Part shown: positions 16,740-28,096 of the stretch, piece after piece
How the letters are laid out: each line of letters begins with the position of its first letter
Position numbering within the stretch: position 1 is the stretch's first letter
NCBI GenBank assembly: GCA_965655095.1
Contig: OZ296659.1
Span: 7,998,001 to 8,062,000 of the forward strand
Origin: Haplodiscus bocki
Lineage: Eukaryota
DNA length: 64,000 bases
Direction of reading: 5' to 3'
Position numbers and translations under genes: made by a program
The notes under the pieces: model-generated
Database searches by the model: none
Seen by the model: the letters and a program-made list of their open reading frames with translations, nothing else
Told to the model about the DNA's origin: nothing

Positions 16740-17275
16740 TGTGTCAAAAGCAATTTGGAAGCCAATTATAATCAAAATCCTCAAAATTTTCTTCAAAAAA
16801 ATTTCCTAAAAGTTTTCTTTAAACCATTGATTTTGGTTGGGCCAAAAACGTGAAAATGTCATATCTTTAAGATGGGATATAATTTTTAATACTTATTTCA
16901 TCAACTTCATCGTTTGTACTACTCATATCGAATGTATCTAGGAAATCAAGTGATGGCACTATTACTTCTATTGGTAATTCATTCAAGCTTGGCAGGAAAC
17001 AAATATGGTCTCTGAAGTGTAATTGTGCTCGGAACAGAAACCTTATCTATAAACATTTCACCTTTTCCACATAACACATACAGTAATGTTATCGAATTTC
17101 TTTTTATGATTATTATAGTGTGGTTGAATGATATCTTTTAATTTAAAAAATTCTTTGTTTTTACATTTTATTCATTCATAATCAGATTTGAAAGTTATTT
17201 TTGTTTCTTTGATTCTTCATGTTTATTTTTGTTTCGCTTTTTTATTTTGAATAGACAAATATTACATTCTCCCAT
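16740..17275 (-). pseudogene. Polinton zinc-finger-containing gene, disrupted
   Basis: TAAATG start on minus strand; MGECNICLFKIKKRNKNKHEESKK (CxxC...H..SKK). Confidence 0.45.
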
Positions 17276-17349
17276 TTATAAAATTATAATTTTTATAATT
17301 ATGTGAGTTTTTCAATTTCAAGTTATTTAATTCTACTAATTTTTATTCT

Positions 17350-17544
17350 TAAATCTTTATCTATATCTGTTACTGTAGCACCCATTGAATTTATCAGTTT
17401 TCTGAGAAATGGATTCTGAATCAAAGTATCATATCCTATCTTTGATTGAGAATTATAAAGTCATCTCTTATATCTATCTAACATATCATTTTTTTCAATT
17501 CGTACTTGCGGATCGTTTTTAATTACATTTATGAAATCATCCAT
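17350..17544 (-). pseudogene. Small Polinton hypothetical gene (MDDFINVIKNDPQVRIEK...)
   Basis: TAAATG start on minus strand; internal stop. Confidence 0.35.
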
Positions 17545-17605
17545 TTATCAAATGGAGAATATTGGGATCTTATATATATCATTTTAAATAATCTTATCTG
17601 AATAA

Positions 17606-17800
17606 ATGAATACTGAAAGTGGTATTTACGAAGTTATATATTGTGCTGACGTAAATGAATACAGGGTATATTGTGAAATTTGTGATGAACTTTGTATTGA
17701 AAGGTATTATAAAAATCATCTTGAATCATGAACTCACACAAATAATTTCTATAAAAGACAACAATTAAAATATTTCAAACAAACTTGTATAAATAAATGA
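17606..17800 (+). pseudogene. Small C2H2 (U1/matrin-like) zinc-finger protein
   Basis: MNTESGIYEVIYCADVNEYRVYCEICDELCIERYYKNHLES*TH. Confidence 0.55.
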
Positions 17801-18334
17801 AGCTTCATTGTGAGAATTGCGCTAAAGTTATGAATGAAGAATTTAGAAAAAATTATCTCGAATCCAACTACCATTGTTCTTTAGTTATTTCAATTATGGA
17901 GATATATTAAAGGCACACCATCACCTATCAAAATATATAATATTATAAAAAATTATCTCAAAATCCACTTTGAAAAAAATGAAAAATATAAAGTTATACT
18001 TTTGCTGAAGTTATTAACACCATCAAATCAAATTAAGTATATTAGAGTCCAACGTTCTAGTTATTATAAAATACGTTTGCCAAATACAATTTTCTTCTCC
18101 AGAAAACAACTTTATTCTCAAATTTTAGAATCAGGAATAACCTTTGCTAGTCTTTCAAAAAACGCGTCATTTGAATATTATCTCACTCAACTGAAATCAA
18201 TGCTCGATTGGAAGCTAATAGCAAAAATAGATAAAGATCCTAAAATTTTAACTATAATTGATTATCGCCTTTTTCGTTACTCCCATCCTTTAATTCGAGA
18301 ATATTTCGATACTTACATAGATCCGTTTTGTTGA
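17797..18334 (+). pseudogene. Polinton hypothetical protein with N-terminal zinc finger
   Basis: MKLHCENCAKVMNEEFRKNYLESNYH, continuing after disruption into ORF 18002..18334. Confidence 0.45.
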
Positions 18335-18339
18335 AAAAA

Positions 18340-18534
18340 ATGTATATAACAAATGTTACTGATTATGATAATACGACTGATGACTATAATGATAGTTTAT
18401 CAATAAATATCAATTGTACTCTGAGTGAAACTAAAATTGTTAAAAATTTACCCACATTATTAATAACAATAGCAAGCGGCTTATCATTTTTTTGTTTGAT
18501 GAGTTTGATGGTGTACACCTTAATTAGACTTTAA
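18340..18534 (+). CDS. Small single-pass membrane protein with 4 N-glycosylation sequons
   Basis: MYITNVTDYDNTTDDYNDSLSININCT... then LLITIASGLSFFCLMSLMVYTLI. Confidence 0.5.
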   Translation: MYITNVTDYDNTTDDYNDSLSININCTLSETKIVKNLPTLLITIASGLSFFCLMSLMVYTLIRL

Positions 18535-18549
18535 TTCAATGAGAAACAA

Positions 18550-25453: not shown

Positions 25454-25560
25454 ATTTAAGTTTTAGTATAAAGATAAATTTATTTAAACCTAGAAAGAAG
25501 AGAAATATTGAATATCAACCGAGTGCTCCTCCGTGTTACGAATAAATTATAAGTACACAA

Positions 25561-25720
25561 ATGACAAAGACATGGTGGTTTGGAGGTCGTCATTATAGTA
25601 ATACTAATAATATAACTCAATATGAAAAGAGAAACCCTAAGACTAAAAAAACTTGTTAAAAATATCAAAGGAACTTGTAGTATTTGTGGTCGAAATAAAT
25701 CTCAAGTTTTTACTGACTAA
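25561..25720 (+). pseudogene. Small basic zinc-ribbon-like protein
   Basis: ...IKGTCSICGRNKSQVFTD*; first CxxC-equivalent degenerate. Confidence 0.45.
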
Positions 25721-26146
25721 ATGACTAAAGGAGAAGATTTAATGATAAAAGGAAAATGTGGACACAATCATTGTTCGGCTATATCAAACGCAGCATGGTG
25801 TGATTTAAACTCGAAAGGTGATATATTAAAATTAAATGGTAATTGGCCCAAATGTAATTGTCAGAAGTTGATCACATTCACACCAAGTCATTTTATGCTC
25901 GAGGGTGGATCAATTAAAAGTAAACTTCAAAAAGTTTTCAGAGGAACCCAAGCTGCTTGGAACAAAGTTCCTAAGCCCGCAATCAATGCAACAGCACCGT
26001 TTATAGGAATGGCTGTGAGTGCTAAAACAAAAGATCCAAAGGTCGGACAAGCAACGACTAATGTTTTGAAGAGTATATCAGGGGGCAAAACTTTATCACT
26101 AACTGATATGCACTCAGGAGCTGGTCTTAGATTACGAGTTATGTAA
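25721..26146 (+). CDS. Intact 141-aa virion core/membrane-lytic protein candidate (adenovirus pVI-like)
   Basis: Adenain consensus sites LEGG|S and ISGG|K; amphipathic basic helix SIKSKLQKVFRGTQAAWNK; basic C-terminal tail GLRLRVM. Confidence 0.6.
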   Translation: MTKGEDLMIKGKCGHNHCSAISNAAWCDLNSKGDILKLNGNWPKCNCQKLITFTPSHFMLEGGSIKSKLQKVFRGTQAAWNKVPKPAINATAPFIGMAVSAKTKDPKVGQATTNVLKSISGGKTLSLTDMHSGAGLRLRVM

Positions 26147-26175
26147 TTTTAATTCAAATTAAGTTATTGATACAA

Positions 26176-26770
26176 ATGAGTAACTCAAATGAAATTTTAC
26201 AGAAATGTTGTAGATGTGAAGTTGTACAATTATTAGAAAATTTCAACAAAGATAAAAATAGAAAAGATGGTGTATGTCCACAGTGTATAAACTGTTGTAA
26301 AAAATTCTATTTTATGAACTTAGATAAAACTAAAAAACGTAATGAACAAAATAAAGAAAGCAGAAACATATATCTTAAAAACAAACGAGAAACAGATGAT
26401 AATTTTCGATTAATCAGTAGTACAAGAAATAGGATATACAAAACATTAAGAGGTTTGACAAAACAATCATCGACGAAAGAAATTTTAGGAATAGATATTG
26501 ATACTTATAGAAAATGGATTCATCGCAGATGACTCCAGAGATGAATTGGAGTAATATAGAAATAGATCATGTGAAACCAATTGGCATGTTCGATTTATCT
26601 GAAGACGAAGAATTTAGAGAAGCATTTTGTTGGAAAAATACTCAACCGTTAGGTGGAAAAGATCATCAAAATAAGGGAACAAAAATTTCCAGACCATCAA
26701 CTACAATTTATTAAATCTTATCAATTTTTGAAACTAAATGGAAAAAGACATAACGAGAATTTTCAATGAT
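26176..26770 (+). pseudogene. HNH-type endonuclease with N-terminal CxxC zinc domain
   Basis: KCCRC..F.KDK..KDG..PQCINC; QMTPEMNWSNIEIDHVKPI..FDL...AFCWKNTQPL....H..KG; one frameshift. Confidence 0.8.
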
Positions 26771-27579
26771 GAGGTATACTCTCCTCCACCTAAAAATTTT
26801 CCAACAAATAAGATAATATTCAAAGCTTTCATTGATACTCGGTCCTCAGAACTATTGGATATGAATGATTATGGTATTAAAAATAATAAACGTTAAAGAT
26901 ATATTTTTGTAATAGTCGATATTTTCAGTAAGTTTGGTTGGACAATTCCTTTGAAGAACAAATGCGCACAGTCAATAACAGATTCATTTTCTCAAATTGT
27001 TAAAACATCGAAACGTAAGCCAAACCTCCTCGAAACAGATGATAGTAAGGAATACGTGAATAAATTTTTCAACGAATTTTAATACAATCATAACATTAAA
27101 AGATATTCTAGAAATACAACCCTAGAAGCAGTATTTGCTGGAAGATTTAACAGAACTATCCGTAATCTGTTAAGGTAACCAGTCATTCTAAGAGGAATTG
27201 GTGATTGGTTCTCTAGACTTCCATCTGTTATTAAAAAGTAAAATAAAACCATTCATCATTCAACGAAAGTGAAACCAATTGATGTTTTTTTGAAAATAAA
27301 TAAAAAAGAAGTCTATTCAAATCTTCAAGACTAGAGAAAAAAACTTAACCCAAAATTTAAACTAGGACATTTAGTTCGTACAAATGATATAAAAAGAGTA
27401 TTCTCGAAAAATGATAGTAGAAACTATAGCTATAAATTCTTTACAATCACAGAAGTCGTATACTTTGCTATGGAATAGACTTTCTGCCTGAGAGATATAA
27501 TCAAAATCTATTACTTCCTTCGAAACTAACCTTAGAACAAAACAATCAAGTAATGAAGAAACTAAATTTAATTCAATAA
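26738..27579 (+). pseudogene. Retroviral-type (rve) integrase of the Polinton
   Basis: YIFVIVDIFSKFGWTIPLKNK, RKPNLLETDDSKEY, RFNRTIRNLL, HHSTKVKP, FKLGHLVR; multiple stops. Confidence 0.93.
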
Positions 27580-27592
27580 ATAAACTTAATAA

Positions 27593-28096
27593 ATGGAACT
27601 GTCAGAAGGTGAAATAATTAAAAAATATGGTAAACATCGTGGTCATTGCAATCGAAAAACTCTTTTACCATACGAATATGAATGGACTTGTATTTCATGC
27701 GGATTCAACCTAATCAAAAGATAACTTGGACTTTCGAAAATTCAAAGAAGAAAAATAAATTTTAGAAATAGAATAAAGTATACAGAACAAAAAATATTCT
27801 GCATTTGCATAGAAGTATAACAAACATATGGAGGTAATGATTATGAAGAAATATATGAAGTTTTATCAACATTAAAAAATTAAAAATTAGAAATAATCAA
27901 AATCTCAATTAAAAAATATAAAGGTATGTTAAAAAATCCTGATTTTAAACAAAACCATTATTCAATAACTTCAACTGGTATCTACAAAATTGGACATGAT
28001 ACTGTTAGATTAATGAAATGGTTAGCTTTTTATGATGAATCTTATTTTGAAAATATATTTTATTATGAATTGATGCGATCTATTTTGGAAATTTAA
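27593..28096 (+). pseudogene. Zinc-ribbon hypothetical protein
   Basis: MELSEGEIIKKYGKHRGHCNRKTLLPYEYEWTCISCGFNLIK. Confidence 0.5.

Follow-up and report, generated by a model that had tools for sequence, protein, structure and literature searches.

Poxvirus-type post-replicative promoter signals at the gene starts of endogenous Polintons in the genome of Haplodiscus bocki

The window analysed in this study is a stretch of 64,000 nucleotides from Haplodiscus bocki (GenBank assembly GCA_965655095.1, contig OZ296659.1, positions 7,998,001 to 8,062,000 of the forward strand), which contains a decayed Polinton/Maverick element of 18.7 kb at positions 14721-33413, with stop codons and frameshifts in most of its genes. 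Analysis of this element and its relatives revealed that nearly all of their genes start at the hexamer TAAATG, preceded by upstream signals resembling those of poxvirus late and intermediate promoters. The kind of element is known, while its promoter architecture, which is strongly supported, is undescribed; its helper is hypothetical. The explanation we lean towards, at slightly better than even confidence, is that the Polinton genes would be transcribed by a pox-type polymerase from a co-infecting large virus; the element would then be an integrating virophage-like satellite.

An earlier sequence-only reading of the window had listed 14 exact TAAATG sites as gene starts, and all of them are present. 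Twelve (17603, 17794, 19282, 20923, 21068, 22764, 24623, 24844, 25718, 26735, 27590, and 17542 on the minus strand) are gene starts by homology. The site at 17273 on the minus strand has weak homologue support (E ~6e-4 in two copies), and that at 24569 is not a gene start, opening a duplicated stub of 17 codons that recurs in three other copies and does not amount to a full gene. One further exact start, absent from that list, is found at 16357-16362 on the minus strand. The six sites described there as decayed versions of the motif are true gene starts, and their orthologues mostly carry it: 12/12 for the ATPase, 15/15 for the penton, 11/14 for the protease (as TAAAT), 25/25 for the 24325/24623 family, 12/13 for the DUF5679 gene and 9/9 for the HNH-a gene. 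The statement that almost every gene starts at TAAATG is correct for the family as a whole; in the decayed window copy the proportion is just over half, with the exact hexamer at 13 of 23 homology-defined starts. Within the element 34/570 ATGs (6%) are part of TAAATG, and in the flanks 41/1514 (2.7%); against the 6% background the 13/23 has a binomial P of 8e-11. When open reading frames (ORFs) are defined by their first ATG, the background is 41/1095 in the window flanks and 709/12182 in shuffled copies. The hexamer occurs at chance level in the window overall (77 observed vs 84 expected); the enrichment sits at the starts.

Because most genes of the window copy are broken, the annotation was built on the open ORFs of other natural copies, whose N-termini were projected onto the window. 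Twenty of 40 listed copies were compared, giving 21 with the window, and ORFs were clustered by their N-termini, blind to the motif. TAAATG was found at 271/457 clustered starts and at 27/652 unclustered ORFs. Twenty-four clusters, consisting of internal fragments, antisense shadows and terminal-repeat ORFs, were set aside, a choice made after the counts had been seen. Across 26 gene families in the 21 copies, 266 of 331 starts are exact, in another 24 TAAAT precedes the ATG by 0-4 bases (290 in all), and 41 have neither. The capsid genes of four copies differ by a synonymous divergence (dS) of 0.48-0.82, with a ratio of nonsynonymous to synonymous divergence (dN/dS) of 0.05-0.19; the near-fixation of the non-coding TAAAT bases despite such divergence implies selection.

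TAAATG is not a general property of host genes or of Polintons, and the sequence-only proposal withstood comparison with both. The hexamer is missing from all 12 host starts considered (nine tubulins and three histones; the tubulin start of L104, which is probably an exon boundary, was excluded, as was a spurious match in antisense). None of the 12 has TAA before the ATG and all have a purine at -3, where 83% of the element starts have T. In ten other Polinton contigs from IMG/VR, with 26-41% G+C, TAAATG opens 4 of 99 ORFs; this count leaves out L125, L127 and L130 as near-duplicates or parts of the same contig, and L081 and L134, which are not Polintons, were dropped from it. Counted apart, L079 has TAAATG at 1/14 ORFs and the decayed L080 at 1/16. 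These relatives were obtained by degenerate motif scans of IMG/VR, while capsid and polymerase protein queries yielded no confirmed relative. It is next to impossible that TAAATG is an artefact of the composition of an A+T-rich element. The G+C content of 25-29% and the chance-level frequency of the hexamer over the window would fit such an origin, but backgrounds of 3-6% contrast with 57-80% at starts, equally A+T-rich Polintons do without the motif, and one contig that uses it (L078) has 38% G+C. This explanation was rejected on the flank and shuffle backgrounds, the other Polintons and the statistics of the upstream T described below.

The data support TAAAT behaving as a conserved initiator of the poxvirus post-replicative type and not as a by-product of stop-start packing. 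An intact family gene ends directly at the next exact start in just 17 of 266 cases, a minimum figure because many upstream genes are broken; this is in line with the earlier view that packing explains only part of the pattern. Both members of head-to-head pairs of starts have TAAATG, as seen in L078 and in the window, where neither TAA of the pair (17542 and 17603) can be the stop of an upstream neighbour. At 23 starts the offset forms TAAATATG and TAAATAATG retain TAAAT although it is uncoupled from the ATG. A natural swap has placed two unrelated polymerase genes behind one promoter with constant spacing between TAAAT and an upstream core: the ATG overlaps TAAAT in 6/8 starts of one polymerase type, and is located 11-12 bases downstream of it in 7/9 starts of the other (6 distinct loci). 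Since the spacing of TAAAT from the core is kept despite the shift of the ATG, the motif is not a stop-start artefact.

These observations bear on a post-transcriptional role of the motif, either in stop-start coupling on a polycistronic RNA or as an upstream polyadenylation signal resembling AATAAA, a reading that is largely refuted and to which we assign very little probability. True abutments do exist, with nine of ten measured gaps equal to zero in the 25718 family, and 82/266 exact starts read AATAAA, most of the others being variant hexamers. However, the dinucleotide preceding TAAA differs from copy to copy of a given gene, in contrast to TAAAT and the T ten bases upstream, which are constant; this argues against a polyadenylation signal. 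The few abutting starts, the motif at head-to-head starts and the persistence of TAAAT 11-12 bases from the ATG are likewise at odds with post-transcriptional action. Stop-start packing as a general cause was rejected on the offset forms, the head-to-head pairs and the polymerase swap. The polyadenylation signal was rejected, as were a trans-splice acceptor, the motif having no AG, and a Kozak-type context, given T at -3 in place of the host purine.

Late promoters of vaccinia virus are characterised by TAAAT(G) and a conserved T at the tenth upstream base amid other Ts (PMC11980589), and intermediate promoters by TAAA with an optional TG, no T at -10, and an A/T-rich stretch 15-19 bases upstream (PMC11980589; PMC5294985). 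The element has the late features, namely TAAAT(G) at the start and a T at -10 amid Ts. In 24 gene families the frequency of T at -11, -10 and -9 before TAAAT is 0.76, 0.77 and 0.68. The gene-level mean of 0.77 at -10 compares with a permutation mean of 0.39 and is reached by none of 20000 permutations, and the frequency at 555 non-start TAAATG sites is 0.32. The -10 T is nearly fixed in the penton (15/15), capsid (14/14), fibre (15/16) and integrase (12/12) genes and in five small genes. A second class of genes carries the core TTCAA(A/G)TAA at a fixed spacing, about 10-11 bases before TAAAT. Four families mostly have no -10 T; three of these bear the core (ZnF-b 9/13, g5 4/4 and HNH-a 6/9), and the fourth lies head-to-head with a core-bearing family. 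The core is present at 7/7 starts of the other polymerase type and at 5/555 non-start sites. By analogy with vaccinia virus, we infer that class 1, comprising the capsid, penton, fibre, integrase and small core genes, is late-like, and that class 2, comprising the DNA polymerase, HNH, zinc-finger and VLTF-3-like genes, is intermediate-like. A possible resemblance to intermediate promoters lies in the fixed-spaced core class, yet the polymerase genes carry both the core and the -10 T.

The same start signal extends beyond the family of the window element. Family B, found in the same genome, has about 30% capsid identity to it and a different gene order; in 16 of its gene clusters 58/60 starts are exact and 45/60 have the -10 T, and its other 12 clusters, mostly short shadows and the polymerase, include one exact start. 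The metagenome contig L073 has TAAATG at 6/6 and the -10 T at 6/6 starts, and L074-L077 have the -10 T in 8/8. In the IMG/VR contig L078 TAAATG is present at 7/7 real genes. The short metagenome contigs L071-L073 (JAAUY contigs) carry relatives with open frames and a capsid identity of about 45%, possibly derived from another host or from free particles. Contig L078 (IMGVR_UViG_3300020002_000020) is a 9-kb Polinton fragment with 38% G+C and a head-to-head promoter of 34 bp, in which one ORF contains a protease-like region, an integrase and a chromodomain.

In phylogenetic analysis of the ATPase (11 rows, L126 left out), a single clade of TAAATG elements, named after the first tree had been seen, was rejected (approximately unbiased test, p-AU 0.0003), and the ATPase of L078 groups away from those of the other TAAATG elements. 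The trait is thus patchily distributed, through convergence or gene shuffling. Most of the polymerase tree lacked resolution. Searches for homologues were dominated by copies from this host or one very close to it, and the breadth of animal Polintons is therefore poorly sampled. Other Polintons (L079, L121, L123, L126, L128 and L131; L082/L133 and L122) have start-proximal motifs of their own: in one set TATA-rich runs lie a short distance ahead of the ATG, and another has TAAAA(A) runs (raw counts of 6/11 and 6/13 ORFs). A TATA motif at late starts is known from African swine fever virus (PMC5294985).

No RNA polymerase gene was found among 27 proteins scanned from the element family. Together with pox-type start signals at nearly all starts, this makes it likely that the polymerase is supplied in trans. 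If it came from a co-infecting large virus, the element's polymerase and regulatory genes would be activated first, by the intermediate machinery of this helper, and its virion genes afterwards, by the helper's late machinery. The polymerase would start within the AAA of TAAAT, slip and add a 5' poly(A) leader, which would replace the unfavourable T at -3 by A. Starting within the AAA and slippage to a poly(A) leader have been shown for vaccinia virus and for yeast linear elements (PMC6211774). Two zinc-ribbon proteins encoded by the element family might act as the helper's late factor or compete with it, and copies would enter the chromosome via the integrase and then decay. The sequence-only reading had proposed transcription by a polymerase of the type found in poxviruses or other nucleocytoplasmic large DNA viruses (NCLDV). 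The motif does behave as an initiator of the post-replicative type, while the polymerase itself stays inferred, no helper genes having been found in weak searches of the genome.

Several points weigh against a pox-type helper. The promoters are recognised from DNA sequence, and their start sites and poly(A) leaders are predictions. The pox/NCLDV marker families PF04947, PF04451, PF03288, PF03340 and PF03295 had no match in the genome, but these are weak tests: four of the five matched no control genome either, and absence from the host genome is thus not established. The RNA polymerase loci found in the genome comprise two Rpb2 loci and three intron-split Rpb1 loci, all outside the elements and read as host polymerases. 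A scan of IMG/VR with the promoter pattern gave 55 single matches, three of which open an ORF of >=60 aa, and no helper candidate. The very many inherited copies are hard to reconcile with strict dependence on rare co-infection; a first look gave 2770 to 25053 candidates, which are not copy numbers. Yeast cytoplasmic linear elements also use TAAAN, so the motif marks a type of polymerase and not the Poxviridae. The -10 T is weak in L078 (2/7). Finally, the 26 families were picked after the counts had been seen, the unselected figure being the 271/457 against 27/652 reported above. As a separate observation on host genes, one RNA polymerase second-largest subunit (L083, G000:C10) is encoded in a single intronless frame of 1139 codons, and several tubulin genes are intron-poor.

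The zinc-ribbon proteins are encoded by two adjacent paralogues of ~172 and ~277 aa, 32% identical and composed of a zinc ribbon and helices. The window carries the shorter paralogue only, and the longer is next in line in most other copies. The VLTF-3-like gene is under purifying selection (dN/dS 0.14-0.28). In a protein atlas both paralogues draw VLTF-3 clusters (0.89-0.90, with low recognition values). A structural model of the shorter paralogue reached a pLDDT of 83.5 (a first, poor model had 54), and its top Foldseek match in BFVD was cowpox VLTF-3, which is below threshold at E 0.056 and a TM-score of 0.19. Fold comparisons gave TM-scores of 0.19-0.27, and no search reached E <0.001 or Z >5.3; nothing clear was found in PDB, and Pfam yielded weak zinc-ribbon matches with none to PF04947. 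The resemblance of the pair to the poxvirus late factor VLTF-3 is therefore a lead, not an assignment. VLTF-3 genes have already been described in some polintoviruses (PMC11131425; PMC8502044). A profile of the zinc-ribbon proteins had no match in eight family-B stretches, L071-L073 or L078, all of them TAAATG users, and the motif thus seems not to need these genes in cis.

This pair is central to an alternative that we consider rather unlikely but of some weight, in which host RNA polymerase II, steered in the nucleus by the two VLTF-3-like proteins, transcribes an autonomous element with no helper. Two paralogues under purifying selection, with VLTF-3 as their nearest named look-alikes, would suit such a role; mriyaviruses, for their part, have VLTF2/3 without an RNA polymerase and are regarded as nuclear viruses (PMC11253617). 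Autonomy would also account for the high copy number. Against this stand the fold matches to VLTF-3, which are not significant, and the missing profile matches in other TAAATG users (family B, L071-L073 and L078). Moreover, by the established geometry of polymerase II initiation, initiation within TAAAT would leave hardly any leader ahead of the ATG, and TATAAAT serving as a TATA box would direct initiation past the ATG.

It is improbable, in our estimate, that the polymerase is provided in trans by a cytoplasmic linear element like pGKL2, or by a larger Polinton-like replicon that encodes an RNA polymerase; to our knowledge no such polymerase-bearing linear element is known in animals, and no extra RNA polymerase locus was found in the genome. 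Yeast virus-like elements do combine a TAAAN initiator, slippage, protein-primed replication and terminal repeats (PMC6211774), and they derive from Polintons (PMC11071308). However, their upstream element resembles the poxviral early promoter and lies 20-40 bases before the start codon (PMC6211774), whereas the element studied here has the -10 T and an intermediate-like core.

Comparison with known systems places the window element among the Polintons/Mavericks (adintoviruses, Polintoviricetes), with which it shares inverted repeats, a 6-bp duplication, polymerase B, an rve integrase, an A32 ATPase and capsid; it differs in its starts from the ten other Polintons examined, which are without the TAAATG signature. 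Vaccinia virus shares TAAAT(G) over the start codon, the -10 T class and a second class with an A/T-rich upstream core. Mavirus and the endogenous mavirus-like elements of Cafeteria are also integrated and polymerase-less and carry the late motif of a large virus at their starts, and the types of Cafeteria elements differ in promoter motif (PMC10945749). Mavirus differs in its virophage capsid lineage, protist host, known helper, and experimentally demonstrated reactivation and protection; the promoters described here differ from those of vaccinia virus in lying in an 18.7-kb integrating element without an RNA polymerase gene. The yeast elements pGKL1/2 have the TAAAN initiator with slippage, terminal repeats, a protein-primed polymerase and a compact A+T-rich genome, but no capsid or integrase, their own RNA polymerase system and an early-type upstream element (PMC6211774). 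Closest in proposed lifestyle are AHEV_PLV1/2 and CBEV_PLV1, small Polinton-like viruses found in entomopoxvirus occlusion bodies and proposed as poxvirus hyperparasites, two of which fall as divergent lineages within the mavpol2 capsid clade of Mavericks/Polintons (PMC11296320). Their link to poxviruses is co-packaging, while the window element is canonical, bears an integrase and is linked by promoter anatomy alone. In the available parts of that source neither TAAAT nor 'motif' occurs in the text, and 'promoter' does not occur in the supplement.

Pox-type promoters in Polintons were not described in the literature covered, most subscription papers and preprint supplements being outside its scope. 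No promoter analysis of Polintons was found: the available text of PMC8502044 has no match to 'promot', and the accessible portions of 10.1101/2024.03.23.586382, 10.64898/2026.10.13.758929 and PMC11071308 contain none.

These findings bear on how animal Polintons are transcribed, and on whether their lifestyle is that of an autonomous nuclear virus or of a virophage. Given the two-class promoter set, a large pox-like virus would be expected in this host, in which searches found none, and start motifs would offer a sequence-only route to match endogenous Polintons with helper lineages. More tentatively, and with somewhat less than even confidence, the genome may store a large and diverse endogenous virophage population whose helper is a pox-like virus still to be discovered; these virophages would have a two-stage, intermediate-then-late promoter programme and a VLTF-3-like pair of their own. 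The start motif of a Polinton would then be a barcode of its helper (TAAAT pox-like, TATA-rich asfarvirus-like, longer TAAAA runs others), gained repeatedly, as the TAAATG elements do not form one ATPase clade. If host polymerase II, steered to TAAAT by the VLTF-3-like pair, were instead responsible, the late promoter system of poxviruses might have originated in a small virus.

The window element is a Polinton/Maverick by its repeats, 6-bp duplication, polymerase B, integrase, capsid and ATPase. It is bounded by long terminal inverted repeats of ~1.4 kb, its left end reads AGTAGT, and the 6-bp target-site duplication at 14715-14720 is seen in the sequence again at 33414-33419. It is colinear with 20 other copies in this genome of 1.5 Gb, which contains many Polinton copies. 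Histone and tubulin sequences suggest a eukaryotic host, most likely an invertebrate. In other copies, Pfam matches were obtained for the A32 ATPase (PF04665, E 7.6e-10), the double jelly-roll capsid (PF21738, E 2.4e-11) and the integrase (PF00665, E 8.5e-11). The putative penton, adenain-type protease and fibre are named from position and motifs; the first two had no match in Pfam, NCBIfam or PDB, and their homologues recur in other Polintons. The features are listed in Table 1.

Table 1. Features of the Polinton/Maverick element in the window, with counts from orthologous starts in other copies
Feature	Positions	Strand	Remarks
Left terminal inverted repeat with ~153-bp internal repeats	14721-16179		Partner at ~32146-33413
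Start of small terminal gene, exact TAAATG	16357-16362	-	Family g49; 15/15 starts exact, T at -10 in 15/15
Short zinc-finger-like ORF, exact TAAATG	17273-17278	-	Weak gene status
Head-to-head start pair, TAAATG on both sides	17542-17608	17542 -, 17603 +	Families 6/11 and 13/13 exact
Zinc-finger gene, exact TAAATG	17794-17799	+
A32-type packaging ATPase, broken, initiator decayed	18547-19275	+	Orthologous starts 12/12 exact
Conserved gene flanked by the ATPase and penton genes, exact TAAATG and T at -10	19282-19287	+	15/15
Putative penton (minor capsid), broken, initiator decayed	20122-20907	+	Named from position and the sequence-only reading; 15/15 exact, T at -10 in 15/15
Small basic gene of 51 aa, exact TAAATG	20923-20928	+
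Double jelly-roll major capsid gene, broken, exact TAAATG	21068-22362	+	14/15 exact, T at -10 in 14/14
Putative adenain-type cysteine protease, broken	22363-22763	+	Named from His/Cys motifs; TAAAT elsewhere often offset (TAAATATG)
Putative fibre gene with repeats, broken, exact TAAATG	22764-24324	+	Other copies (n=17): 5 TAAATG, 11 offset TAAAT, 1 none
Three small/medium gene starts and 17-codon stub at 24569	24325-24849	+	24325 decayed; 24623 and 24844 exact
DUF5679-like zinc-ribbon gene (decayed start) abutting conserved 141-aa gene	25558-26146	+	25718 exact TAAATG, true stop-start junction
HNH-type gene, A-rich-core promoter class, initiator decayed	26150-26714	+	Core 6/9, T at -10 in 1/9
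Retroviral-type integrase, broken, exact TAAATG	26735-27580	+	T at -10 in 12/12
Zinc-ribbon and helical gene (~172 aa in other copies), core-class promoter	27570-28096	+	Exact TAAATG at 27590
DNA polymerase promoter: A-rich core, spacer, TAAA-run initiator apart from projected start	28125-28168	+
Family B (protein-primed type) DNA polymerase, broken	28166-31960	+	Assigned from sequence motifs and relatives
Decayed second copy of the g49 terminal gene	31983	+

Within the family of the window element, the same promoter stands before either of two very different DNA polymerase types (window 28098-32116; L011-L058). Nine of 20 copies align to the type of the window, and family B likewise contains both. 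The window type has no match to PF03175, yet groups with Polinton polymerases, and the other type, in a sister copy, matches PF03175 (E 2e-10). The genome contains at least four Polinton capsid families, with identities between families from ~30% upwards, and many of the capsid frames are open. Most compared copies have a dS of ~0.45-0.8 and are under purifying selection. Judged from these sequences, the copies seem to stem from repeated, separate insertion events fed by a diverse replicating population, and not from a single burst.

In another Polinton, an ORF at L079:8274-9038 resembles a Tet/JBP-type dioxygenase (PF12851, E 2e-7, below the cut-off). An inverted piece matching the left terminal repeat is located at 35208-35510, ~2 kb past the right end of the window element, and a short internal inverted repeat at 14761-15044, near the element tip, duplicates terminal sequence.

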